From assembly GCA_964422025.1 (NCBI GenBank), contig CAYQYZ010000007.1:458-64457 (forward strand): a stretch of DNA of 64,000 nucleotides, written 5' to 3'. A model generated the notes under the pieces. That model ran no database searches and was not told the DNA's origin. It worked only from the letters and a program-made list of their open reading frames with translations. Source of the stretch: an uncultured Gammaproteobacteria bacterium (GTDB lineage Bacteria; Patescibacteriota; Microgenomatia; UBA1406; HO2-37-13b). The position numbers were made by a program, and so were the translations under genes. How positions within the stretch are numbered: the first letter of the stretch is position 1; each line of letters opens with the position of its first letter. This document shows positions 7,587 to 63,662 of this stretch, piece by piece.

Positions 7587-8690
7587 TTATACCCCAATCT
7601 TGAATTCGACTACATCACCATCTTTCATAATATAATCTTTTCCAGCAAGTGTGACTTTTCCTTTTTCGCGGGCACCAACCCAGCCTTTAAGCGCCACAAA
7701 GTCGGCAAAAGAAGAAATTTCAGCTTTAATGAAATTTTTCATAAAGTCAGTATGAATTTCTCCACTGGCTTGCACGGCGTTTGCGCCACGTCGAATGGTC
7801 CATGCTCGAACTTCTTTTTCACCTGCTGTTAGAAATGAGATCAAGCCAAGTAATTCATATGTTTTTTGAATGAGGCGATTAAGTCCGGTCTCTTGCAGAC
7901 CATATTGATTCAAGTACTCCTTTTGCTCTTCAGGGGCAAGTTCTACAATATCGTTTTCGAGTTTGGCGCAGAGGTATAAATACTCCGAGCTACCCTTGTC
8001 ATCCTGAACTTGTTTCAGGATCTCCGCTATCTTAATCTCTGTCCCTTCCTTATCTTCCAACTGGCCCTCAGACGTATTAAATACAAACAAAACTGGCTTC
8101 ATGGACAGTAAATTCAATTGTTTAATCGCTTCTTTTTCATCATCTTCTAACTCAACATTGCGAGCTGATGTTCCTGCATCAAGCGCGGTTCGAAGTTTTT
8201 TTACAACCTCGAAGGTTGCTAGGTCTTCTTTAGACGCATTTCCCTTAGGTTCCTTGTATTTCTCAAGTGTTGCCAAGTCTGCCAGTATAAGCTCGGTATT
8301 AATCGTTGCAATGTCCGAAGACGGATCGATTTTATCGGAAACGTGGGTGATTGTAGAATCTTCAAAAATTCGAACTACATGGACTATCGCTTCCACTTCA
8401 CGAATGTGTGATAAAAATTTATTTCCGAGTCCTTCACCTTTGGAAGCTCCAGCCACAAGCCCTGCTATGTCGTAAAATTCAACAACAGCTGGTACGAGTG
8501 GGGGGTTGTTGGGGAAAACGGTTGCCAGAGCCGCCAGGCGATCATCGGGGACCTCAACAATACCCACATTAGGCTCAATGGTTGCAAACGGGTAATTAGC
8601 CGCATACGCGACCTGTTTCTTTAAGAGAGCGTTAAAAAGAGTACTTTTTCCAACATTTGGGAGTCCAATAATTCCACAAGAAAGTTTCAT
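7587..8690 (-). CDS. ychF: ribosome-binding ATPase YchF
   Basis: GLPNVGKSTLFNAL P-loop and YchF-type C-terminus. Start placed at Met8 because TATAAT (8700..8705) lies between Met1 and Met8. Confidence 0.9.
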   Translation of the reverse strand: MKLSCGIIGLPNVGKSTLFNALLKKQVAYAANYPFATIEPNVGIVEVPDDRLAALATVFPNNPPLVPAVVEFYDIAGLVAGASKGEGLGNKFLSHIREVEAIVHVVRIFEDSTITHVSDKIDPSSDIATINTELILADLATLEKYKEPKGNASKEDLATFEVVKKLRTALDAGTSARNVELEDDEKEAIKQLNLLSMKPVLFVFNTSEGQLEDKEGTEIKIAEILKQVQDDKGSSEYLYLCAKLENDIVELAPEEQKEYLNQYGLQETGLNRLIQKTYELLGLISFLTAGEKEVRAWTIRRGANAVQASGEIHTDFMKNFIKAEISSFADFVALKGWVGAREKGKVTLAGKDYIMKDGDVVEFKIGV

Positions 8691-10574: not shown

Positions 10575-11537
10575 TTATGAAACGGAAGATTCGATAGTCT
10601 TTTTTAGTGCATCGAGAGATTCAGCATCTAAAACAGAACAGGTGAGTATTGGCTTTTTTAACGATTTTAGCTTCGAAATTTTTGCTTTTATTTCTTTTTC
10701 AGTTACCACATCAGTTTTAGTGAGAATAATAATCTCTGGTTTATCTAGAAGCGTTGCGTCATAAGACTCTAATTCATGCCGGATGGTTTTGTAATCTTTA
10801 AGGGCGTCAGGAGACTCAATGTCGATACAATGAACAAGCAATTTAGTTTTGCTAATATGTTTTAAGAATCGTACTCCCAGCCCTTTTCCTTCGTGAGCTC
10901 CTTCAATAAGACCAGGAATATCGGCTAAAATGAGATCGTTCATTTTTCCTAAATTTGGTTCGAGCGTAGTGAATGGATAATTTCCAATTTTTGCTTGGGC
11001 GTTGGTGAGGGCGTTTAGCAAACTGCTTTTTCCGGCATTGGGAAGTCCGATAAATCCAATGTCAGCAATAAATCGTAAGTTAAGTTGTAGCGTTGTTGAT
11101 TGTCCAGGTTTTCCGGGAAGTCCAGCCGGAGGAGCTTGATTGCTGGCACTTCGTAATTCAAAATTTCCTCTTCCACCATTGCCCCCTTTGGCGATTAATA
11201 CTTTTTGATCAACCTTTTCAATTTCGATGGTTTTATTGGATTGCAAATCAATAATGCTGGTTCCAATAGGAATGCGAATAAGCAAGTCATCTCCGCCTTT
11301 TCCTTCACATTTTTTAGCTGCTCCGGCTTTGCCGTCTTCGGCTTCAATCTTTTTTTTGGACTGGAACTGTAAAAGGGCACCAAGGTCGGAAACCCCAATA
11401 AAATACACATCTCCGCCTTTTCCTCCGTTGCCGCCATCGGGTCCACCACGGGGAATAAATTTCTCACGACGGAAGGAAGCGGATCCATGACCGCCACTAC
11501 CTGCGTACACATCAATAATAACTTCGTCGATAAGCAT
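10575..11537 (-). CDS. obg: GTPase Obg (short form, no C-terminal domain)
   Basis: Gly-rich Obg fold (GGHGSASFRREKF..GGPDGGNGGKGG), G1 GLPNAGKSS and G3 DIPGLIEGA. Confidence 0.9.
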   Translation of the reverse strand: MLIDEVIIDVYAGSGGHGSASFRREKFIPRGGPDGGNGGKGGDVYFIGVSDLGALLQFQSKKKIEAEDGKAGAAKKCEGKGGDDLLIRIPIGTSIIDLQSNKTIEIEKVDQKVLIAKGGNGGRGNFELRSASNQAPPAGLPGKPGQSTTLQLNLRFIADIGFIGLPNAGKSSLLNALTNAQAKIGNYPFTTLEPNLGKMNDLILADIPGLIEGAHEGKGLGVRFLKHISKTKLLVHCIDIESPDALKDYKTIRHELESYDATLLDKPEIIILTKTDVVTEKEIKAKISKLKSLKKPILTCSVLDAESLDALKKTIESSVS

Positions 11538-11560
11538 GCCTGTATTATACTCTATTTTGT

Positions 11561-11615
11561 CAACCTAAGAGGTTGAACGTGCCTGTTCTCCGCCAGCTGG
11601 CGGACTGGAAGGTTG
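11561..11615 (+). repeat. REP-like hairpin array (CAACCT-AAG-AGGTTG, linker AACGTGCCTGTT, second unit interrupted by palindrome TCCGCCAGCTGGCGGA)
   Basis: Read directly from the sequence. It lies between the divergent obg and sigma-factor genes. The last arm abuts TATAAT 11616..11621. Confidence 0.8.
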
Positions 11616-11627
11616 TATAATACCTAT

Positions 11628-25432: not shown

Positions 25433-25546
25433 TCAATTATTAAATTCTTATTAAATTTGTGAAAATCCTTTTTTGATAATTTTGGCAACCTGGTGATATT
25501 TTGACAACCTGGAAGGTTGGTAGTGCCTGTTCAACCTGGAAGGTTG
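25433..25546 (+). repeat. REP-like cluster: 24-nt AT-rich flank + partial unit + two perfect CAACCT-GGA-AGGTTG hairpins joined by GTAGTGCCTGTT
   Basis: Hairpins lie at 25505..25519 and 25532..25546. The flank TCAATTATTAAATTCTTATTAAAT (25433..25456) is identical to 37227..37250. Confidence 0.85.
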
Positions 25547-29584: not shown

Positions 29585-29623
29585 GTATTGGGAATTGCAA
29601 ATTTTTATGGTTATAATGAATCT

Positions 29624-30415
29624 ATGAGATTTATTAAAACGTTTATCTTTTTGAGCGTCATATTCCTTCAATATGGAGCACAGCTTAGTTATGCCGATAT
29701 TACACCCAATCCAACTACCTTACCGGCATTTTTAGTACGCGAATGTGGTTATTCTGAAGATCCAAATGCAAATAAGTGTTGCTCAAAACTTGATTTTGAA
29801 AAGACAGTTGCTGGACCTGCGAGGTTTGTATTTAGAGCTGCTCTGCCAGATCTTTTAGCAAATGCTGCAGTAGATGTAGTATCCAAAGCATACGAATATG
29901 ACCCAATTCACAAAAAAATGGAAGTGAGTTGTTATACAGGATTTGAGAAAAAAATTGATGTAAAAAATTCTACCACTGGGAAATTAGAAAAGGCATGTTT
30001 TTGTTCAGATGAAGCATATCAAAAAAAAGCTGTTACCTCGGTAGCTGCCCAGGGGTCTCAGATTATAAAAATTTGTAATAAATATATCGATAATAAGAAA
30101 GAATGGAATGCATGCCGAGCATGTGCTCAGAGGGAAGCATTTATGACTGGGCTAGGATGTATTCCGACAAATTTTTCAGAATTTGTTACAAATTTTTTGC
30201 TAAAGACTGGAATAGGGTTCGCAGGCTTGTTCTCATTAGGATGTATAATTTATTCTGCTATCATGATTCAGACATCTCAGGGTAATGCTGAAAAAATTAG
30301 TGCATCTCAAGATCAGATTAAGGCGTGTATATTCGGATTATTATTAGTGATGTTTTCCATCTTATTACTTCGAATAATAGGAGTAGACCTACTTGGATTA
30401 CCGAGCTTCGGGTAA
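29624..30415 (+). CDS. Cys-rich secreted domain fused to TrbC/VirB2-type pilin-like module
   Basis: Signal peptide, then about 12 Cys in the N-terminal ~150 aa. C-terminal two-helix pilin layout (GFAGLFSLGCIIYSAIMIQTSQGNAEKISASQDQIKACIFGLLLV). TATAAT lies 6 nt upstream of ATG 29624. Confidence 0.6.
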   Translation: MRFIKTFIFLSVIFLQYGAQLSYADITPNPTTLPAFLVRECGYSEDPNANKCCSKLDFEKTVAGPARFVFRAALPDLLANAAVDVVSKAYEYDPIHKKMEVSCYTGFEKKIDVKNSTTGKLEKACFCSDEAYQKKAVTSVAAQGSQIIKICNKYIDNKKEWNACRACAQREAFMTGLGCIPTNFSEFVTNFLLKTGIGFAGLFSLGCIIYSAIMIQTSQGNAEKISASQDQIKACIFGLLLVMFSILLLRIIGVDLLGLPSFG

Positions 30416-30509
30416 GTGAAAAGATTTAGTAATTAAGGGATAATTTGGGGGTACTAATAACTTACCGAAATCTATTCAATGTGATATTTTGATCAATAGC
30501 TTTTTATTT

Positions 30510-32213
30510 TTATAAATTCGTCATTCTCTCTTGATCACTTCCACCATGACTTCCGCCTCCGTGTCCGCCACCTTTCATCTTCCCAGTTATCCATCCTTTA
30601 ATTCGATCAAGGCCAGGCAACTCTCCTTGGCCACCAGCCAATCTCGAAAGAGTATGGACTTGTGAAGCAGCACCCATAGCGGATCCGGCGAGTATACCAG
30701 CTCCACCTAAGAGTAAGCCTGCACCGCCTTTAACGGCAGGTTCACCCGCGATTCTTTTTACCATATCTTTTACAATATTCGGAATTGCGAATAACATCGC
30801 GCCCGATATGACCATCGCCATAACATCTGTGTCAAAATCATACAAAAGAGGCATAGAAAAAGCATCTTGCCCGCCGTTGAAGCCTATTCCTTGTATTACC
30901 TGAATGACCAAAATGAGGGTGATAACTGCAGGAAAAACCAAAAGATTCCCAATAAGTTTTTTAACCCATGAGCTAAAGCCATCCTGGCCGGGTACTGCGA
31001 CAAGTATTAAAAAAACAGGAGCAAACATAACGTTGATTATGATTTGGATATATGCGCCAATTAGTAAAAAAACTATTCGAAAATACAAAAATAACACGCC
31101 TACAATTGCAACTATTAAGAGTAATGAGTAGACTGCAAAAGTTGCCGTGCCAAGGCCAAGCATGAGGCTCATAAATGCTCCAATAAAACTACCTGCATCA
31201 ATAATGCCGTTTGCACTGCCTAAAACTCCGACACTAGCTTGAAAATGACCAAAAATTGCTTTCGCCGCAGTTACATTGTTGTTTGCTAAACGGAGCCCAA
31301 TGAAGGTTGTTGCGAACGTCAAAATTGCTCCTATGGAGACTTGTAACCACGGTGGAATCAGGGTGATCACATTGATTAACGCTTTGTAGTACAGTTGACC
31401 AGTAAATGCCGTAAATTGACCTGAACCACCGAAGCTCAATATGTTTGATGTTAAGTATTGGTCTTGGAGTTGTTGGGGATCCATATTCGGCAAGCCCGAT
31501 GAATGAAAGATTTGAAATATAAGCAAAATTATAACGTATGTTAAATCTATTAAAAGACCAGCCATTGCATATGAAAACGTAATGGCGAGAAGCGCTACTA
31601 CAATACGAGGAAGTGCATTTTGCACAGAAATAATCGTATGGGAATCAATTTTATATTGAAACATAATCATGAAGCCCGTTGCTATAATAATGAGCACTAA
31701 GACCATATAGGTCATATTTCGAAATGCTTTCCAAACACCAAGAAATGGGCGTAGGCTTGCAAAACCAACTCCTTCAGCAGCATTCGCTTGAGTTATGAAG
31801 CCTGCATCTTGAATGGATTGGTGAATATACGCAATACCCGACGCGGGGGGGTTCATGATTGGTGCAACCATTATTCTTGAAGCATGCCCAAAAAAACTTT
31901 TTGGGAAATTTTTTATTTGGTCTTCTGAATTATTTGAACAAAGCGAACCAATAAGACTGCAAAATATTCTTTTTTGAACAATTGCGATCTGTTTACCTAC
32001 TTGTGTTTGATATTGGGGTTGTTGAAATGTTTTGGTCAGTTTTTGTTCTTGTAGTTGTGAAATCTGAGAACCCGAAAGAATATTTTGTTCTGTTTGTGGA
32101 AATCCCCATTTCATGAAAAGACCAAAAGTTATGAATAAAACTGTAGTAATAATAGTTAGTCGTACGAAGTATTTAGAATACTGAGCTAAGAGGGCGCGAA
32201 AATAAATCCACAT
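30510..32213 (-). CDS. polytopic membrane protein, possibly TrbL/VirB6-like, Gly/His-rich C-terminus
   Basis: About 10 TM helices and the C-terminal tail KGGGHGGGSHGG. Start set at Met14, since the track's TTG is a -35 box. The family call is tentative. Confidence 0.6.
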   Translation of the reverse strand: MWIYFRALLAQYSKYFVRLTIITTVLFITFGLFMKWGFPQTEQNILSGSQISQLQEQKLTKTFQQPQYQTQVGKQIAIVQKRIFCSLIGSLCSNNSEDQIKNFPKSFFGHASRIMVAPIMNPPASGIAYIHQSIQDAGFITQANAAEGVGFASLRPFLGVWKAFRNMTYMVLVLIIIATGFMIMFQYKIDSHTIISVQNALPRIVVALLAITFSYAMAGLLIDLTYVIILLIFQIFHSSGLPNMDPQQLQDQYLTSNILSFGGSGQFTAFTGQLYYKALINVITLIPPWLQVSIGAILTFATTFIGLRLANNNVTAAKAIFGHFQASVGVLGSANGIIDAGSFIGAFMSLMLGLGTATFAVYSLLLIVAIVGVLFLYFRIVFLLIGAYIQIIINVMFAPVFLILVAVPGQDGFSSWVKKLIGNLLVFPAVITLILVIQVIQGIGFNGGQDAFSMPLLYDFDTDVMAMVISGAMLFAIPNIVKDMVKRIAGEPAVKGGAGLLLGGAGILAGSAMGAASQVHTLSRLAGGQGELPGLDRIKGWITGKMKGGGHGGGSHGGSDQERMTNL

Positions 32214-32222
32214 GGTAGGTTC

Positions 32223-32252
32223 ATTGTAGAACAATCGTGAAGATGGTGTCAA
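32223..32252 (-). promoter_or_regulatory. promoter TTGACA-N18-TACAAT, 9 nt before ATG 32213
   Basis: Read directly from the minus strand. Confidence 0.5.
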
Positions 32253-32257
32253 ATGTA

Positions 32258-32791
32258 TTATTTTTCAAAACCTTCATCAGGTTCAGGGAGATCTTTGACG
32301 GTAAAACTATATGTGAATGGAGTGGAAAGTCTTTTACCACTGAGCGATTCGGATTCAGCATAAACAGTAATAGTATTAACTCCAAAGGTCCAAATATTTT
32401 TAGGGGTAATAATAATACTGTTGCCATCGGAGTGAATTAAAGTAGGTACGGAAGGATCGACTTTATAATAAAATGCACGTTCTTTGATAGGTTCTGAAAA
32501 TGTTATAGATACTTGTAATGCTGGTGATTGGTCAATGGAACCATCTTGGGGGTTGATAGATACTAATTGAATGGCGTTGTCAGTCGGCTCGGTTACTATA
32601 TCTTCGTTAGAAGAATTTGAACTTGTTGGAATAAGCAACTCTGCACTCGTGGGCGCTGGTTGCGTGTCTTGTGTCACTTTCTCTTTTGTTGTAAAAGCAG
32701 ATATAACGATAAGAACAAAAAATATGAAGCCGATAAATGCAACAATTCCAATAATTAGTAATTTTTTTCTATCAATCATTATGGAAAGCAA
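32258..32791 (-). CDS. membrane-anchored protein with Ig-like (SbsA/Big-type) beta domain
   Basis: N-terminal TM helix. The C-terminal ~100 aa resemble bacterial Ig-like folds (VSINPQDGS...ITFSEPI). Assigned by eye. Confidence 0.5.
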   Translation of the reverse strand: MLSIMIDRKKLLIIGIVAFIGFIFFVLIVISAFTTKEKVTQDTQPAPTSAELLIPTSSNSSNEDIVTEPTDNAIQLVSINPQDGSIDQSPALQVSITFSEPIKERAFYYKVDPSVPTLIHSDGNSIIITPKNIWTFGVNTITVYAESESLSGKRLSTPFTYSFTVKDLPEPDEGFEK

Positions 32792-33516
32792 TAATAACTA
32801 GTGGCCGACTTCCAGCCACCCTGATTAATTTGTATATGTACATGGTCGCACCCTTGTTGTTGACAAACCCGTGCTCCTACTTGTCCTGATTGAGCTTCTT
32901 TGCCGATTCCAATTCCAGATCCAAGCTGTGTGTGGTGTAAAGTAACTATATATGCCTTTCTATTCACATTAGCTTGATATTTTTGAATTCCGTTCCTTGT
33001 TGCAGCATAATGATACCAAATTACGTTTTGCCCCTCAATAGGAGGAAGTAAGATTGGCTGGCCTGGTTTCATGCTTATGTCAATGGCATATGCTGTTCCC
33101 CATATTTCAGCTCTGTTTTCACGATCGCAACTGTTTACTTGTTCGAACGTATTATAATTGAGCCCGCAGTGACCACAATTCGCTCGTGGGGTAGAACGAG
33201 AGCCGCATAAGTAAGCTCCTCCTCGCGGCGCACAGGCGCCTGGAACTGGTGGCATAGCAGTTGGCATTATTTCAGGAGTCGGATATGGTGGGGTGGGTTG
33301 AAGTGGATAAGGAGTCGGTTGATTGGGGTCGGGAACTCCTTGAGTGCAACTAATTCTAAAAAGTGCACATAAAAGATTCGGAAGGATATTTAAATCCTTT
33401 TCTTCAATTTTAGTGAAAGGATCGGCATAGGCGGGAGTGGTAAGACGAGAAATAACCACAAATAAAATTAAGAAACTAGAAAATAGTATAAATATCGAAG
33501 ATATATTTTTTCTCAT
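32779..33516 (-). CDS. secreted LytM/M23-like protein (partly degenerate motifs)
   Basis: Signal/TM segment, a Pro-rich linker, an AIDIS...GQPILLPPIEGQNV block and a C-terminal DHVHIQI (HxH). Start at Met10 gives an ATGA overlap with the upstream stop. Confidence 0.45.
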   Translation of the reverse strand: MRKNISSIFILFSSFLILFVVISRLTTPAYADPFTKIEEKDLNILPNLLCALFRISCTQGVPDPNQPTPYPLQPTPPYPTPEIMPTAMPPVPGACAPRGGAYLCGSRSTPRANCGHCGLNYNTFEQVNSCDRENRAEIWGTAYAIDISMKPGQPILLPPIEGQNVIWYHYAATRNGIQKYQANVNRKAYIVTLHHTQLGSGIGIGKEAQSGQVGARVCQQQGCDHVHIQINQGGWKSATSYYCFP

Positions 33517-34244
33517 TCTGTCACGCCTGCCTTTTTTGCCCAATAAGCGCCTGAACGGAATAAGCTTTCAAAAGTGCCGGCGTCGGACCAAAACCCATCA
33601 ATTTCTGCCCATTTCATTTCACCCCGTTCAATGTATTGGTTCTGAAGATCGGGAACTTCCAGCTCGCCTCGATCGGATGGCTTAATAGTGCGAATAAAAT
33701 CGAAGCAGCGATTGTCGAAAATATATAATCCAGTACTTGCGTAATTGGACTTTGGATTGGCGGGTTTTTCTTCAACTTTGATGATCTTTTTAGGGTCAGT
33801 AGGGTCAAAAACGGGCACTCCAAATCGTTGTGGATCAGAAACTTCTTTCAAAAACATCATAGCCCCTGACTCGAAATTCTTAACCGCACCTGAAATATCA
33901 GCATCGGTAGTGTTGTCTCCTAGAATGACTGTGATAGGCTCATTATTGGCAAAATCTTCAGCATACATAATGGCGTCACAAATTCCACCTTTTGGATTAC
34001 CTTGAAATGCGTATTCTAAGTGGGTAATTCCCAGTTCTTTTCCGTTTTCAAGAACGCGAATAAAGTGACCAGCGTAGGGGCCAGAGGTGAGAATTAAAAT
34101 CTCGGTTATCCCGGCGTTTACCAAGGTCTGAATCGGGTAGAAAATCATGGGTTTGTCGTAAATAGGAAGCAAATGCTTATTAGTAGCATGAGTTAGAGGA
34201 TAGAGTCGTGTTGCAAGTCCGCCAGCAAGTATTACGCCTTTCAT
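33513..34244 (-). CDS. sugar-phosphate nucleotidyltransferase (glucose-1-phosphate thymidylyl/uridylyltransferase-like)
   Basis: MKGVILAGGLATRLYPLTHATNKHLLPIYDKPMI N-terminus. Confidence 0.85.
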   Translation of the reverse strand: MKGVILAGGLATRLYPLTHATNKHLLPIYDKPMIFYPIQTLVNAGITEILILTSGPYAGHFIRVLENGKELGITHLEYAFQGNPKGGICDAIMYAEDFANNEPITVILGDNTTDADISGAVKNFESGAMMFLKEVSDPQRFGVPVFDPTDPKKIIKVEEKPANPKSNYASTGLYIFDNRCFDFIRTIKPSDRGELEVPDLQNQYIERGEMKWAEIDGFWSDAGTFESLFRSGAYWAKKAGVTE

Positions 34245-35924: not shown

Positions 35925-37207
35925 ATTTTCATTCTATATAAAATGTAGATGATATTCAGTAAGGAAATGCCGGCTGCGCTGGTAGCTCCGGTTTTGATGA
36001 AGCTTTCTAGGGATGGGTGGCGGAACATGTTGCTAGGAAAGTTGAGGGTTCGGGCGGGTTCGTGTTGATAGTCGGTTTGTTGGGGAAAGGTTGAATCGTG
36101 ACCGATGCCTTGGAAAGCGGTAACGGAGATATCGGTAGGGTAGGAAGAGTCGTCTGAGCTTTCTAAATCAGTACCTAGGACCGTTGCTATATCGCTCTCA
36201 TCCTCTCCCACGAGCTCTCTTTGGGCTGCGCCGATTATGTTTGTTGTGCTTGTAGGGCCAATAATGCATGAGCCATTAGAGTCATTTTTTGTAGGAAGAG
36301 CAATACAAATTTCATGTGAGTTTAAATCGTTTCTCGAAATACTTTTTCCTTGTTGGGCTCGAGAATAAGAAAAATAGTCTTTTTGCATTCTTTCATTGTC
36401 TAGCAGGCGGACTGAGTCGCCGTCGTTGTTAAAAAGTGCCGATTGCATGTCGATTGTGGCGTACGATTTTGGATTAATGGTGAGGGTGAACGCTTGAGGG
36501 CTACTTCCCGCGTTTTCAATGTCGTCAATGAACCAGGAGTTTAGAGTGATTGTGTGGTCATTATTGTTGAAAAGTTCGACCCATTCATGTTGGCCCGATT
36601 CGGGGGTCGTGAGGGCTTCGGAAATGAAGATGTTGTCGGCGCCGCCCAGAGAGCTCTGCCCGGCGGGAGATGGAGTAGGAGTGGGTGCGCCTGTTGGCGA
36701 AGGTGTACTCTGCGTTGTTGGAGTAGGTATTGGGCTGGTTCCGCCAGCTGGCGGAGGAGTTGGAAAGATAATGCTTATTGGAATTGCACTCGCTTCTGCT
36801 TCAGAACTCGTGTAACTTCCAGAAGCCGTGTAGCGACGAATTCTTAGGAAAAAAGAGTTTGAAGTGCTCCAGTTGGGTGGAATGCTCGTGAGTCTTGCGG
36901 AGATGGTTGCTAGTTGCATTTCTGAGCTAGCGATGTCGATTGGGGCGTATTTGGTGCCATCTTCTCCGTTATACCACTCTTGGCCGTTGTAGGTTTCACC
37001 GGCGTAGTCTGTTGAGCCTTCTTTATATAGATCAACTCGTAGGTAGTTTTTACCGGCTTTTGCACCGGTAATACTGATGGTTATTGCAAAAGGGTCTTGG
37101 GAGATTGAACTAGGGGATTGGGTGAGGGTTGTGGTGACTGCGTGCACACTCCTTGTAGAGAAAAATAAAAATAGGAAAATGGTGAAAAAATTGAGAAAAA
37201 TTTTCAT
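35858..37207 (-). CDS. secreted protein with lamin-tail domain (LTD)
   Basis: Signal peptide, a PT-rich linker, and an LTD-like HEWVELFNNNDHTITLNSWFIDD...GDSVRLLD block. Confidence 0.65.
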   Translation of the reverse strand: MKIFLNFFTIFLFLFFSTRSVHAVTTTLTQSPSSISQDPFAITISITGAKAGKNYLRVDLYKEGSTDYAGETYNGQEWYNGEDGTKYAPIDIASSEMQLATISARLTSIPPNWSTSNSFFLRIRRYTASGSYTSSEAEASAIPISIIFPTPPPAGGTSPIPTPTTQSTPSPTGAPTPTPSPAGQSSLGGADNIFISEALTTPESGQHEWVELFNNNDHTITLNSWFIDDIENAGSSPQAFTLTINPKSYATIDMQSALFNNDGDSVRLLDNERMQKDYFSYSRAQQGKSISRNDLNSHEICIALPTKNDSNGSCIIGPTSTTNIIGAAQRELVGEDESDIATVLGTDLESSDDSSYPTDISVTAFQGIGHDSTFPQQTDYQHEPARTLNFPSNMFRHPSLESFIKTGATSAAGISLLNIIYILYRMKIWPPIHFRSKIFSSIGFPWSPG

Positions 37208-37226: not shown

Positions 37227-37308
37227 TCAATTATTAAATTCTTATTAAATATGGCGAGTATTTTGGCAACCTGTCAGGTGGACAGTGCATTGGTAACCTG
37301 TCAGGTTG
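37227..37308 (+). repeat. REP-like cluster (24-nt AT-rich flank + two CAACCT-GTC-AGGT(T/G)G hairpins, linker ACAGTGCATTG)
   Basis: Hairpins lie at 37267..37281 and 37294..37308. The cluster ends 2 nt before the RAYT stop codon. Confidence 0.8.
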
Positions 37309-37309
37309 T

Positions 37310-37948
37310 TTAGTGGAAATCATCCTCTACAAATTCTTTATACTTATTCAAATCATTATTGAAATATTTTAAGACTGGTTCGGTATATGTCAAAGCTAGT
37401 AGATCGGGATTGTTGCCTAGGTAGTCTTTATATGAACTCCATGGATATTCACGAAAAGAATCTCTAAACGTCGCTTTATGTGCTATTGGATTTCGATGCA
37501 CATAGCGGGAAACATTGAGGAGTTGTTGTTCGGTGGTTATAGGAACATCATGAAAGGGACTGAGAAAAAGAGGACCTTTTCGCTCGTGTTGTGTATTATA
37601 TGCTCGAGTAAAAGAATTTGTAATATTTGAAATGAAATCGTGAATTCCGTCTGAAGTACTCTGCTTGAGTATAAAGTGGAAGTGATTTGGCATAAGACAA
37701 TAGGAAATAATTTGAACCCGAAATTTAGCTGTATTATTTAATTGCTTTTTAATTTCACTCTTTTGGCGTGTGTCAAGTCGTTTCCATTTAGAGAAACTTA
37801 ATTGTAGATCGGAAGCTCTGTAATAAAATACGGTAAGAAGGAATCTATTACAAAGGGAAGTATCGAGAAATGGAGTTTTACTATCAACGGTTTTATTAAA
37901 AATATGGTAGAAATTGCCATTTAAAAAATCTCTTTTTTTGGAAGACAT
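37310..37948 (-). CDS. REP-associated tyrosine transposase-like protein (HUH/Y1 transposase, IS200-like fold)
   Basis: HUH motif YCLMPNHFHFIL and Tyr motif SRYVHRNPI. 212 aa, single domain, with no tnpB partner. Confidence 0.8.
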   Translation of the reverse strand: MSSKKRDFLNGNFYHIFNKTVDSKTPFLDTSLCNRFLLTVFYYRASDLQLSFSKWKRLDTRQKSEIKKQLNNTAKFRVQIISYCLMPNHFHFILKQSTSDGIHDFISNITNSFTRAYNTQHERKGPLFLSPFHDVPITTEQQLLNVSRYVHRNPIAHKATFRDSFREYPWSSYKDYLGNNPDLLALTYTEPVLKYFNNDLNKYKEFVEDDFH

Positions 37949-37973
37949 GCCGTACTATGACATATTTCAATCA

Positions 37974-37998
37974 GAATGTCTACGGACTAGAAGTCACA
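37974..37998 (-). repeat. 25-nt exact repeat (copy 2, reverse complement of 4783..4807) in the RAYT promoter region
   Basis: Supplies TAGACA as the -35 box, followed by N17-CATAGT, 5 nt before the RAYT ATG. Confidence 0.8.
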
Positions 37999-38059
37999 AA
38001 AACATATATTTAGAATGTTGTGACAGTATAAAGAAGTGCTTATAGCAGTTAGTTACTGG

Positions 38060-38101
38060 CAACCCGTCAGGTGGACGGTGCCTATTCAACCTGGTAGGTT
38101 G
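38060..38101 (+). repeat. REP-like hairpin pair (CAACCC-GTC-AGGTGG, linker ACGGTGCCTATT, CAACCT-GGT-AGGTTG)
   Basis: Read directly from the sequence. Lies between the RAYT start and the ftsX stop. Confidence 0.8.
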
Positions 38102-38111
38102 TATTTCTCTT

Positions 38112-39008
38112 TTAAATGTATTTACTCGTGGCGAAGTAGTTTCCAAGAAGTCCAATTATCATGCCAAAAGCGACGGTTAATGTATAGGAAAGAATAATGA
38201 AAACCAGGCTTGGTGGCCACACAGTGAGTTGTAGGTGGGTCAGTCCGTAAAATGAAAGATTAGGAATGCTGCCTAAATAAGAACTTAAGAATGGTTTGAC
38301 TGCAAAAAACGTTCCATAAAAGGTTGCGAATGCTAGTGTTCCACTGACTAATCCAAAAAAGATTCCTTCTTCTAGAAACGGCTTTCGGATATAGAATTTG
38401 GAAGCTCCTAGTAAGCCAAGCAGCTCAATTTCATCCTTTTTAAGTGCGATTTTAAAAGCGGTTGTCGTAACCAAAACAACGATAGACGTAAACATTAAAA
38501 ACGCAAAAATACCAGCGGACACTCCTCGTAATACATTCGTTAATGTATGTAATCGATCAACAATATTTTTTTGAAAGACGACTTCATCTACACCTGGCTG
38601 TTTTTGTAGAAATGCTGCAATTTCTTTTAAATACTCAGGTTTTTTTGCACTAATTTCCAAAGATGCGGGAAGTGTTTCGGCCGAAACAAGTTCCTGCAAC
38701 TGCGGTTCATCGCGACTTATTGAAGTTCGATAAATTTTTAAGGCTTCTTCGCGTGATACGTATTTAATTGAATCAGCTTTTTGAGATTGAAGAATTGCTT
38801 CTTTTAATCGATTGATTTGCTCAAGTTGAGTTGTTGATTCAAAATATACGGTTACTTGCGGACGAGTTTCTACATAGCTCAACAAGCTCGAGAAAAATGA
38901 GGTGAGTGTGAAAAAAAATACGGCCATGAACAAGGTGAAAAACAAAATCATGAACGAAGCGAGTGATTGATAGGGGGTTCGTTTGACTGATTGCACGAAT
39001 GATCTCAT
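38112..39008 (-). CDS. ftsX: cell division permease FtsX
   Basis: Four TM helices with a large extracytoplasmic loop. Overlaps ftsE by 4 nt. Confidence 0.85.
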   Translation of the reverse strand: MRSFVQSVKRTPYQSLASFMILFFTLFMAVFFFTLTSFFSSLLSYVETRPQVTVYFESTTQLEQINRLKEAILQSQKADSIKYVSREEALKIYRTSISRDEPQLQELVSAETLPASLEISAKKPEYLKEIAAFLQKQPGVDEVVFQKNIVDRLHTLTNVLRGVSAGIFAFLMFTSIVVLVTTTAFKIALKKDEIELLGLLGASKFYIRKPFLEEGIFFGLVSGTLAFATFYGTFFAVKPFLSSYLGSIPNLSFYGLTHLQLTVWPPSLVFIILSYTLTVAFGMIIGLLGNYFATSKYI

Positions 39009-40242: not shown

Positions 40243-41244
40243 TCAATGTTTCAAATATGTTTCGATAAATTTGTCAATATTACCTCCTAGAACGCTCTCT
40301 ACATTAGTCTCTTCGTACCCGGTACGAGTGTCTTTGATGAGTTTATACGGATGTAACACGTAGTTGCGGATTTGCATTCCCCATGAAGCCATTTTTGCCC
40401 CTCGCAAGGAATCTAAATGTTTGTTTTTGGAATCTTCTTCGATTTGCCATAATTTAGCTCGAAGGAGTTTGAGCGCATTTTCGCGATTTTGCTCTTGCCG
40501 ACGCTCTTGCTGACAGGTAACAATAATACCGGTTGGCTTGTGAATTAATCGAACAGCAGTTGAAACTTTATTTACATTTTGACCACCATGCCCCCCCGCT
40601 CGATAAAACTGCCATTCAATATCTTCATCTTTAATCTCGACCTCACGTTCTTGAATGATAGGGAGGACCTCCACGAGTGCAAAGGAGGTTTGGCGTAGAT
40701 CATTTGCATTAAATGGAGATTGTCGAACTAAGCGGTGAACTCCAGCTTCTGCATGCAAATATCCGTACGCGTATGGACCTTCGATATTGAGCACAACACT
40801 CTTAATTCCAGCCTCTTCACCTTGAATATAATCAACAATTTCGATTTTGTAACCCTTCTTTTCAAAATAGCGCATGTACATGCGATACAGCATTTCAGAC
40901 CAATCCATGGCCTCTGTTCCACCTTGGCCGGCGTGGATTGCAAAAATAGCATCACCAGAATCGTAGGGACCTGAAAGGAACAGAAGAATTTCATAATCAT
41001 CGAGCATTTTTTCCAAGTCTGTAGTATCTTCCTCGCCCAACATCAGCTGCATAAGTTCAATATCGTCGACTTGTTTTTTAAGCGCGGTAATTTCTTTCAT
41101 AACCTTGCCTGATTCTTCCGGATTGCTCCAAAAAGACGCGTCGTAGGTTTTTTTCTCAAGATCTGCAAGGTGAGTCTTTTTCTCAGTAAGATTGACTTTG
41201 GTAATAAGCGCGTTCACACGCTCTTCTAATTGTGCTTTGTCCAT
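40243..41244 (-). CDS. prfB: peptide chain release factor 2 (contiguous ORF, no programmed frameshift)
   Basis: SPF tripeptide (RQSPFNAN) and GGQ motif ([10 protein letters not shown]). TATAAT lies 6 nt upstream of the ATG. Confidence 0.9.
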
Positions 41245-41266
41245 GGGAGTATTATACCTGAACTGA

Positions 41267-41308
41267 CAACCTCTTAGGTTGGTAGTGCGTGTTCAACCTC
41301 TTAGGTTG
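41267..41308 (+). repeat. REP-like hairpin pair (2 x CAACCT-CTT-AGGTTG, linker GTAGTGCGTGTT)
   Basis: Both hairpins are perfect. They lie between the stop of the 487-aa gene (41313) and the prfB promoter. Confidence 0.85.
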
Positions 41309-44469: not shown

Positions 44470-44636
44470 GGAATAGAAATCTCGAAACATTGCATTTCCC
44501 CACCACCAGCGTTTCCAAAAGGCCGGTTTTTGTAAGAATTCAAAGTCAATTTTAGTTGGGGTATCGATCATAAGCCCACATATTTCTTAGAACAATCGGA
44601 TCATCTTCCATTCGCAACATGTAACACTATGGCCTG
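44470..44636 (-). pseudogene. decayed partial copy of the 3' half of gene 45270..45695
   Basis: Encodes LRMEDDPIVLRNMWAYD and MIDTPTKIDFEFLQKPAFWKRWWWGNAMFRD in two different frames. It has lost the native stop and the N-terminal half. Confidence 0.65.
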
Positions 44637-45269: not shown

Positions 45270-45695
45270 TTAGAATACGTACTCTCTAAACATCGAATTC
45301 CCCCACCACCATTTTCTCCAGTATGCAGGTTTTTGCAAGAATTCGTAGTCTATGTTTGTTGGTGTATCAATCATAAGTCCAATTACGTTTTCAGGAATAT
45401 ATTGTTCCCAAATCCATACATTGTCATTTGGGTCATACGCCCACATATTTCTTAAAATAATTGGGTCTCCTTCAAGGCGTAGAACCGTTACTTTTCCTCC
45501 ATTAAAGTCTTGTGGAAATACCTTACCGCCTTTTACGGTTAATACCCATTTCATGTCACCACCAAATTCAGGTGATGTAACGACTTGTAAAACGGAGTTG
45601 TTGACTGATTGAGCATGCGCAGTAGTTGCGGTGACACCAAGAGCGATACTTGAGATAAGCGCAAGACTTAGGAGTGCTTTTTTAATGAAATTCAT
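45270..45695 (-). CDS. secreted hypothetical protein
   Basis: Signal peptide ending AHA-QS and a Trp-rich C-terminus (YWRKWWWGN). A paralog fragment lies at 44470..44636. Confidence 0.6.
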   Translation of the reverse strand: MNFIKKALLSLALISSIALGVTATTAHAQSVNNSVLQVVTSPEFGGDMKWVLTVKGGKVFPQDFNGGKVTVLRLEGDPIILRNMWAYDPNDNVWIWEQYIPENVIGLMIDTPTNIDYEFLQKPAYWRKWWWGNSMFREYVF

Positions 45696-63193: not shown

Positions 63194-63529
63194 TTATTCT
63201 TGGACTTTCTTTAGTTGGTCATTTACCCATTCCAATTCTTCTTCCAAATATTTCTTTTTTGCTTCTAAATGCTCTTTGTCTGAACCGTATTCTTCATTGC
63301 TACAACAACCGTCGCTTCCGCAACCATCTTTTTCGTTGTCGTCACAGCAGCCTTTTTTAGAACCGCATTTTTCATCGTTGCAACAACCTTCTTTATCGTC
63401 ATGTTCACATTTGTCGTCGCAGTCGCATTTGCATCCGGTTTCCTTTGTGCATCCACAGCCTCCGTCCATACATGAACATTTTTTGTGTTCGTGTTTTTCG
63501 TCAGTGTCGTTATGTGAGTGATTATGCAT
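63194..63529 (-). CDS. Cys/His/Asp-rich metallothionein-like protein with C-terminal coiled coil
   Basis: 16 Cys in the first ~76 aa (CSC, CGC, CKCDC, three CC pairs) and 6 His in the first 15 aa. GGGGGA SD upstream. The stop lies 1 nt before the TerC ATG. Confidence 0.7.
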   Translation of the reverse strand: MHNHSHNDTDEKHEHKKCSCMDGGCGCTKETGCKCDCDDKCEHDDKEGCCNDEKCGSKKGCCDDNEKDGCGSDGCCSNEEYGSDKEHLEAKKKYLEEELEWVNDQLKKVQE

Positions 63530-63593: not shown

Positions 63594-63662
63594 CAACCTG
63601 GAAGGTGTGCAGTGCCTGTTCAACCTTCGAGGTTGGTAGTGCGCATTCAACCTAAGAGGTTG
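63594..63662 (+). repeat. REP-like three-unit array (loops GGA, TCG, AAG; linkers GCAGTGCCTGTT, GTAGTGCGCATT)
   Basis: Hairpins lie at 63594..63608 (right arm degenerate), 63621..63635 and 63648..63662. Confidence 0.85.

Follow-up and report, generated by a model that had tools for sequence, protein, structure and literature searches.

Here, we present an analysis of a 64,000-nt stretch of contig CAYQYZ010000007.1 (assembly GCA_964422025.1), referred to below as the window, with a focus on a gene for a Y1 HUH endonuclease of the RAYT type (REP-associated tyrosine transposase; REP, repetitive extragenic palindromic) and on the short DNA hairpins that bracket it. For matching or closely related contigs, one source labels the proteins 'Microgenomates group bacterium'. 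The gene is present in one copy in the window and lies on the minus strand between the genes for FtsX and a lamin-tail-domain (LTD) protein, with no tnpB beside it. On either side of the gene lies a doublet of hairpins, both in the same orientation on the plus strand, and the same hairpin unit is dispersed over further sites (Table 1).

The open reading frame (ORF) is intact and its product contains YCLMPNHFHFIL and SRYVHRNPI. With the Pfam model Y1_Tnp (PF01797), the protein scores 32.7 bits, above the gathering cutoff of 23, and with the NCBIfam model for IS200 only 13.6 bits. In an alignment of 44 homologues, H15, N18, H89, H91, Y149, and N153 are invariant, while P154, the SS pair of WSSY, and several other residues are conserved in at least 90%. 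Because a search of the PDB sequences with the single protein gave only marginal matches to ISDra2 (E ~0.3), a family profile was needed. With this profile, the best solved relative is TnpAREP of Escherichia coli (PDB 4ER8; E 4.6e-7), and the ISDra2 and IS200 transposases match more weakly (E from 1e-4, for ISDra2, to 0.5). The profile alignment to 4ER8 spans PEHMH, DYIYINP, and WPFSTF, and H89, H91, and Y149 align to the first two of these motifs. The AlphaFold (AF2) model is confident (predicted local distance difference test score 91.8; predicted TM-score 0.89), and 4ER8 ranks first in a Foldseek search of the PDB (E 7.7e-8, target TM-score 0.72, root mean square deviation 3.3 Å), with IS608 and ISDra2 behind; the top 18 matches are all TnpAREP, IS608, or ISDra2, which identifies the fold as HUH.

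Class 2 of the TnpAY1 proteins is defined by Y-x3-NP and IS200 by Y-x3-Q (Quentin et al. 2018, PMC6006769); judged by its Y-x3-NP signature, the protein is assigned to class 2, the TnpAREP type, and not to IS200. The family consensus in the 44-homologue alignment reads MPNHFH, GPLF(Q/L), SRYIHLNP, and YPWSSY. By motif inspection only, NHFH, F(Q/L), Y[IV]H[LR]NP, and SS appear to match subclass 2.1, which is equivalent to Bertels group 1 (PMC6006769 Table 1; PMC5581495). Pfam gave no match at E<=1 in the 212-aa protein to a C-terminal helix-turn-helix (HTH) of the Bac_DnaA_C, HTH_23, or HTH_28-like kind; the C-terminal tail of ~40 aa is helical in the AF2 model. A sequence-only reading of this stretch had described an intact HUH/Y1 transposase of the RAYT type with its catalytic residues and no tnpB partner. 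All of this holds, the closest solved relative by profile and fold being TnpAREP, except that the motifs are subclass 2.1-like and not those of the E. coli group. Upstream of the gene, the CATAGTAC box of the promoter-like region is kept in a sister species (L085) and in L087, and a promoter at this position is predicted to make the mRNA leaderless or near-leaderless. Similarly, obg, prfB, and the RAYT gene all lack a Shine-Dalgarno sequence, and a TATAAT or CATAGT box lies 5-6 nt ahead of their ATG (11537-11560, 41244-41266, and 37946-37982), which suggests leaderless mRNAs; the arrangement of the prfB box is kept in L085 and in two relatives of the window that lack the RAYT gene (L137 and L138).

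The hairpin unit is CAACCT-N3-AGGTTG, i.e., a perfect 6-bp stem with a 3-nt loop, and it is repeated in arrays with a period of 27 nt. At one mismatch or fewer, CAACCTNNNAGGTTG matches 11 times in the window compared with 0.12 matches expected, and none of 100 shuffles reached 11. The units form doublets at 11561, 25505, 37267, 38060, and 41267, a triplet at 63594, and a single copy at 8204. The earlier proposal that arrays lie on both sides of the gene and that the hairpin recurs at four other intergenic sites (11561, 25505/25532, 41267/41294, and 63594/63621/63648) was thereby confirmed, with the copy in ychF in addition. Coding sequence makes up ~90% of the window, and six of the seven sites fall between genes; two ORFs with an apparent overlap of arrays start with TTG and are spurious, as they lie opposite real genes or between them. 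A 12-nt spacer, GTAGTGCCTGTT, is conserved between the two hairpins of a doublet. Three of the four hairpins that flank the RAYT gene carry 1-2 mismatches, and in two of them, the alternative hairpin CYGTC-CACCT-GACRG fits better; this alternative shows a compensatory C:G to T:A difference between the two flanks. When folded as single-stranded DNA (ssDNA), the doublets give either a pair of small hairpins or a single nested one (folding free energies, -9 to -16 kcal/mol; z-scores, -3 to -5); the long nested fold, which resembles that of REPINs, is possible because each stem is a palindrome. All seven sites have the same orientation within the window. The GC skew is positive in every 4-kb bin, whatever the strand of the genes, and the window is therefore probably located on one replichore. 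At the gathering threshold, Rfam recognized only a tRNA in the window. A metagenome scan with AGGTTGNNAGTGCNNNNNCAACCT yielded 49 matches, none with flanking half-hairpins, arguing that all 49 arose by chance.

Two observations concern individual sites. The copy in ychF lies in the region for the helical domain and is followed by CTAG, and ~0.004 exact copies of CAACCTcgaAGGTTG were estimated by chance; it reads as ordinary coding sequence, and an in-frame REP insertion is not demonstrable. The palindrome that splits the second hairpin at the obg site (11589-11604) has a second copy at 36740-36755 inside the LTD gene, and two copies of this 16-mer in 64 kb are about the chance level.

Table 1. 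Positions of the RAYT gene, the hairpin sites, and associated features in the window
Feature	Position	Strand	Remarks
Single hairpin	8204..8218	+	Perfect CAACCTcgaAGGTTG within the ychF coding sequence, encodes ..ATFEVV..; membership uncertain
Dispersed doublet	11561..11616	+	Between divergent obg and extracytoplasmic function (ECF) sigma-factor gene; second hairpin split by 16-nt palindrome TCCGCCAGCTGGCGGA
AT-rich 27-nt box, second copy	25433..25459		96% identical to 37227..37253; adjoins REP array
Partial hairpin unit (remnant)	25484..25498		Beside the doublet at 25505
Dispersed doublet	25505..25546	+	Loops GGA/GGA; spacer GTAGTGCCTGTT; divergent intergenic region
AT-rich 27-nt box	37227..37253	+	TCAATTATTAAATTCTTATTAAAT; native LTD upstream region (present in L138, which has no RAYT); adjoins doublet
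Downstream doublet	37267..37308	+	CAACCTgtcAGGTGG-ACAGTGCATTGG-TAACCTgtcAGGTTG; 1 nt past RAYT stop
Y1 HUH endonuclease ORF	37310..37948	-	Intact, ATG start, 212 aa; assigned to class 2, RAYT/TnpAREP-like; motifs H89-F-H91, Y149-x3-N153-P154, N-terminal YHIFNK, WSSY
Promoter-like sequence	37954..37982	-	TAGACA-17-(TG)CATAGT, consensus match; ends 5 nt before RAYT ATG
Upstream doublet	38060..38101	+	CAACCCgtcAGGTGG-ACGGTGCCTATT-CAACCTggtAGGTTG; 111 nt from RAYT ATG, 10 nt past FtsX stop
Dispersed doublet	41267..41308	+	Loops CTT/CTT; spacer GTAGTGCGTGTT; between LytR_C stop and prfB -10 box
Dispersed triplet	63594..63662	+	Copies at 63594/63621/63648, 27-nt period; begins right after the stop of the upstream minus-strand gene

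The pairing of gene and hairpins extends across the protein family. Grouped at 50% identity, the profile matches at E<=1e-30 amount to 3,568 clusters; among species-representative genomes, the family is present at 554 loci or more, of which 80 were fetched. The informatively named loci are mostly from Patescibacteria (Daviesbacteria, Beckwithbacteria, Levybacteria, Roizmanbacteria, and others), and many records have placeholder names. Of the 81 genes with complete flanks at these 80 loci, 45 have a perfect hairpin with a 5-bp stem, a 3-nt loop, and the same stem on both flanks compared with 3 of 5,646 random intervals from the same loci. Typically, the hairpins lie 30-60 nt upstream and 1-30 nt downstream of the gene; many of the upstream hairpins are accompanied by TTGAC plus a half-stem 8-12 nt further on. 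The stems vary among genomes (CACCT, CACCC, AACCT, AAGGT, AGGGT, and others), with one clade of [CA]ACC[TC] and one of A[AG]GG[TC]. Importantly, the stems co-vary with the protein: pairs of proteins with the same stem are 50% identical versus 39% for pairs with different stems (permutation p<0.0005), and paralogues within one locus, which are ~30% identical to each other, each have their own stem. Both direct and inverted orientations of the two flanks are found in the family; in the more distant clade, they frequently consist of inverted doublets that together fold into a single long hairpin, similar to REPINs. Extra copies of the hairpin away from the gene were found for 16 of 46 hairpin-flanked genes at the fetched loci.

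The locus is conserved in position. An identical protein is encoded at the same place in four metagenome contigs, and between strains that are ~96.7% identical at the nucleotide level, the RAYT ORF differs by 2 synonymous changes only. In the sister species L085 (GCA_964413645.1), the order LytR_C-prfB-..-FtsE-FtsX-RAYT-LTD-CAP is kept, and CAACCT-N3-AGGTTG doublets are present at the same three sites as in the window. The neighbouring proteins are 88-97% identical between the two species, whereas the RAYT-like protein is 65% identical. Consistently, the nonsynonymous divergence (dN) is 0.23 for the RAYT gene versus 0.025-0.045 for its neighbours, with synonymous divergence (dS) saturated; together with the intact ORF, these values indicate that the gene is constrained yet fast-evolving. 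Compared with FtsX, FtsE, PrfB, and CAP, the RAYT gene (37310-37948 versus L085:5214-5858) evolved 5-9 times faster at nonsynonymous sites. The proportion of synonymous differences (pS) is 0.80 for the RAYT gene and 0.48-0.68 for the neighbours, and this high pS together with the high dN could reflect replacement of the allele and not faster drift alone.

Relatives that lack the RAYT gene were fetched through their FtsX homologues and constitute a small sample. In L138, whose FtsX is 88% identical, FtsX is followed directly by the LTD gene with its AT-rich box and no RAYT gene between them, and only a degenerate hairpin remnant is present upstream of prfB. In L137 and L139 (FtsX 78% and 63% identical, respectively), we found neither a RAYT gene within ±10 kb nor any such hairpins. 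Gene and hairpins are thus absent together in two of these relatives, and only a remnant is left in the third, which within this small sample supports the correlation between the two that the sequence-only reading had put forward for checking.

The evidence for turnover at the arrays is indirect. At two of the three orthologous sites, the interiors of the doublets look inverted in L085, with loops CTT versus AAG; in a by-eye comparison, the spacers of the window and L085 match at 7 of 12 positions in the inverted sense versus 3 of 12 in the direct sense. The doublet at 41267..41308 is kept at the same site in the strain L001 and in L085, apparently inverted in the latter. At this site, L001 has an ORFan of 181 aa between doublets (L001:6010-6690), while the window and L085 have a single doublet. 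The ORFan lacks Pfam domains, and a search of 5.8 billion proteins yielded just two relatives; it reflects either the gain of a cassette at a REP site or a deletion between the direct doublets. Moreover, the AT-rich box and the adjoining hairpin end ..CAGGTTGCCAAAAT are duplicated beside the array at 25433-25546. Because L138 lacks the RAYT gene and has the box as native sequence ahead of its LTD gene, the copy at 25433 looks as if it was transduced with the REP, and we suggest that a REP-associated event may have carried flanking DNA along. Finally, the loops are mostly identical within a doublet and different between sites, arguing for local duplication or homogenization and not for the copying of one master doublet.

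In the canonical systems, the REP tag is a 5' GT[AG]G located 0-2 nt from the foot of the hairpin (PMC6006769, PMC3733652, PMC8266576). The sequence-only reading had drawn a parallel between this tag of E. coli TnpAREP and a GTAG directly after the hairpin; this parallel did not hold. GTAG directly follows the hairpin in only three copies in the window, where it lies in the spacer GTAGTGCCTGTT, 3' of hairpin 1 and 8 nt before hairpin 2. The last hairpin of an array is never followed by GTAG, and GTAG was not seen in the hairpin flanks of the relatives. The 5' flanks of the window hairpins read TTGR or YRTT on the plus strand and CYRY on the minus strand. Based on its position on the wrong side of the hairpin and its lack of conservation, we ruled out GTAG as a guide of the E. 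coli type.

Based on these observations, we consider it probable that the gene and its hairpins constitute a REPtron-like unit, i.e., a vertically inherited, single-copy class-2 Y1 HUH endonuclease together with its cognate REP-like element. Y1 HUH enzymes, such as TnpA of IS608 and ISDra2 and TnpAREP of E. coli, Stenotrophomonas maltophilia, and Marinomonas, bind hairpins in ssDNA; a tetranucleotide 5' of the hairpin foot selects the cleavage site, and the tyrosine cuts and rejoins the strand (PMC3333891, PMC3479197, PMC8266576). By analogy with IS608 TnpA and these three TnpAREP proteins, we propose that the protein would bind the hairpin when it is extruded on ssDNA, most likely on the lagging-strand template at the replication fork, that Tyr149, with a metal held by His89 and His91, would cleave nearby to generate a 5'-phosphotyrosyl intermediate, and that the protein would then rejoin strands. 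Hairpin units may in this way be duplicated, moved, or inverted, or serve as recombination points. The single orientation of the sites and the positive GC skew fit processing of the lagging-strand template, with the strand of the adjacent genes as a confounding factor.

The E. coli REPtron (TnpAREP, also YafM or RayT, with REPs and bacterial interspersed mosaic elements; group 2, subclass 2.2) is alike in its single-domain Y1 HUH protein with Y-x3-NP, in the palindromes that flank the gene and lie dispersed between genes, and in being single copy and vertically inherited. However, the REP hairpins of E. coli are longer and bulged, require a 5' GTAG, and occur as inverted pairs in hundreds of copies, whereas the window hairpins have perfect 6-bp stems and tri-loops and form head-to-tail doublets with a 12-nt spacer at a low copy number; the proteins, of 212 aa here and 165 aa in E. 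coli, are ~15% identical. Head-to-tail dimers are rare among described REPs (PMC3733652). REPtron Sm of S. maltophilia (group 3, subclass 2.5; PMC8266576) is alike in that its short REP is perfectly palindromic around a 3-nt loop and is recognized by the palindrome and the loop and not by a bulge (PMC8266576). It differs in having an 8-bp stem and a 5' GTAG, in being cleaved at CT, and in its very high copy number, and its motifs are DH[LF]H, WQ, and YI[VI]ANP versus NHFH, F[QL], and Y[IV]H[LR]NP here. By its motifs, the protein resembles subclass 2.1 (Quentin et al. 2018), i.e., Bertels group 1 or the TIRYTs (terminal inverted repeat-associated tyrosine transposases; Di Nocera et al. 2013), which is the largest subclass (PMC6006769): shared are NH[YF]H, FQ, Y[IV]HLNP, and the SS in the proximal tail, at a length of 212-230 aa here versus a median of 238. 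Members of subclass 2.1 carry GGGGWSAS in long terminal inverted repeats, and they frequently possess a C-terminal HTH similar to DnaA_C (PMC6006769). By eye, with no pattern search made, neither the flanking arrays nor the sequence next to them showed a GGGG[AT] run; hairpin doublets are present instead.

Several points weigh against a REPtron-like unit. Subclass 2.1 has been reported to lack REP-like sequences nearby (PMC6006769), no canonical 5' GT[AG]G was present 0-2 nt from the foot of the window hairpins, and the score with the NCBIfam model REP_Tyr_transpos (NF047646) is 59.1 bits, under the equivalog cutoff of 80; save for this tag and this score, the class-2 features examined in the protein, in the flanking hairpins, and in the copy number and inheritance of the gene are found. 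The copy number is modest, with 7 sites in 64 kb, and most homologue loci have only the two flanking hairpins within 20 kb, arguing that proliferation is the exception. The uniform orientation is confounded by the adjacent genes, nearly all of which lie on the minus strand, and it does not hold in L085. The REP positions are shared by species with saturated synonymous divergence, which indicates either that mobility is very low or that the host selects for the sites themselves. DNA binding and catalysis, as well as the active strand, the cleavage site, and current mobility, are inferred, the mechanism by analogy with the characterized enzymes.

The most serious competitor, which we nevertheless regard as unlikely, is that the ~835-bp doublet-gene-doublet segment is an autonomous, minimal insertion sequence (IS) of the IS200 kind and that the doublets without a gene are derivatives similar to miniature inverted-repeat transposable elements or excision footprints. 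IS608 and ISDra2 TnpA of the IS200/IS605 family share the HUH/Y1 fold, their genes are bracketed by hairpins, often in direct orientation, and a logic of ssDNA and lagging strand is plausible for both. The hairpins at both ends resemble the subterminal hairpins of IS200/IS605, and the flanks are direct in many homologues; moreover, L138 cleanly lacks the unit between FtsX and the LTD promoter box, the homologues occur in many different genomic contexts, and the 65% identity of the protein compared with 88-97% for its neighbours is compatible with replacement by a related element. However, IS200 elements are multicopy, near-identical within genomes, and not syntenic between species, while the window has one copy in 64 kb, paralogues elsewhere are only ~30% identical, and two species with saturated dS share the position and orientation of the gene. 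IS200 TnpA is also smaller (~130-150 aa), is often paired with tnpB, and has Y-x3-Q instead of the class-2 signature Y-x3-NP, and the best structural match of the protein is TnpAREP, not IS608 or ISDra2. Finally, the gene lies within long contigs, which is unusual for a multicopy IS in short-read assemblies.

Even less probable is that the palindromes are primarily regulatory for the host (duplex operators, promoter-proximal sites, or mRNA-stabilizing hairpins in 3' untranslated regions [3'-UTRs]), with the HUH protein as a regulator or a bystander: four of six arrays start 0-10 nt past a stop codon, five are 20-120 nt ahead of a start codon on the minus strand, those at obg and prfB are ~8 nt from a TATAAT box, array positions are conserved in the sister species, and the TTGAC plus half-stem that follows the upstream hairpin of many homologues resembles a -35 box, but HUH and Tyr, which are invariant across the family, would be needless in a pure binder, the doublet orientation relative to prfB differs between species, and the stems follow the protein clade while the neighbouring host genes differ. 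Two specific versions were rejected, namely, that the hairpins are intrinsic terminators (no T-run follows them on the coding strand, and a terminator scan was empty for the flanking genes) and that they provide -35 boxes (the TATAAT is only 7-8 nt away, a spacing unfit for this function). A secondary benefit of the hairpins to the host, e.g., as 3'-UTR hairpins, is compatible with a REPtron-like unit.

Beyond the RAYT gene, three other regions of the window deserve mention. At 29588-33543 (L001 14409-17416; L085 9562-12571), three adjacent genes for proteins of 254, 177, and 580 aa are 31-61% identical across these strains and species, while the genes that flank the block are 95-99% identical; this may be a hypervariable block, possibly for surface proteins. 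The segments 44480-44608 and 45283-45473 share 79-83% identity over stretches of 99 and 41 nt at a distance of ~800 nt and are probably parts of tandem paralogous genes. Directly downstream of the REP triplet, 63194-63529 encodes a protein of 111 aa that is very rich in Cys, Asp, Glu, and His and has no Pfam match.

Published surveys were based on complete genomes without the candidate phyla radiation (CPR) and found RAYT genes mainly in large genomes (PMC6006769). In the literature on RAYTs or REPs in CPR/Patescibacteria, we found annotation-level mention only and no paper that describes such a system, which agrees with the earlier remark that this setting has been little studied. More tentatively than for the assignment of the unit itself, we entertain the idea of an undescribed branch of REP/RAYT systems in some of the smallest bacterial genomes, in which each class-2 Y1 protein would have a private, minimal, GTAG-free tri-loop hairpin in a hairpin-spacer-hairpin (or half-site) architecture and the arrays would be long-lived recombination points for the inversion of doublets and the gain and loss of cassettes.

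The system is of the REP/RAYT kind, extended to minimal hairpins and minimal genomes, and is not categorically new. Our findings bear on the role of RAYTs in the cell and on how REPs spread. To our knowledge, the biochemical work to date is confined to three proteobacterial systems, each of which needs a 5' GTAG tag. The clade described here is 2.1-like, occurs in genomes of ~1 Mb, and is paired, with strong statistics, with perfect hairpins of 13-15 nt; with such a minimal substrate and a small protein, the system would be convenient for study in vitro. In addition, the arrays give hints of doublets inverting in place and of cassettes being gained. Altogether, the data suggest that a definition centred on GTAG understates how widespread and how varied REP/RAYT-type systems are.

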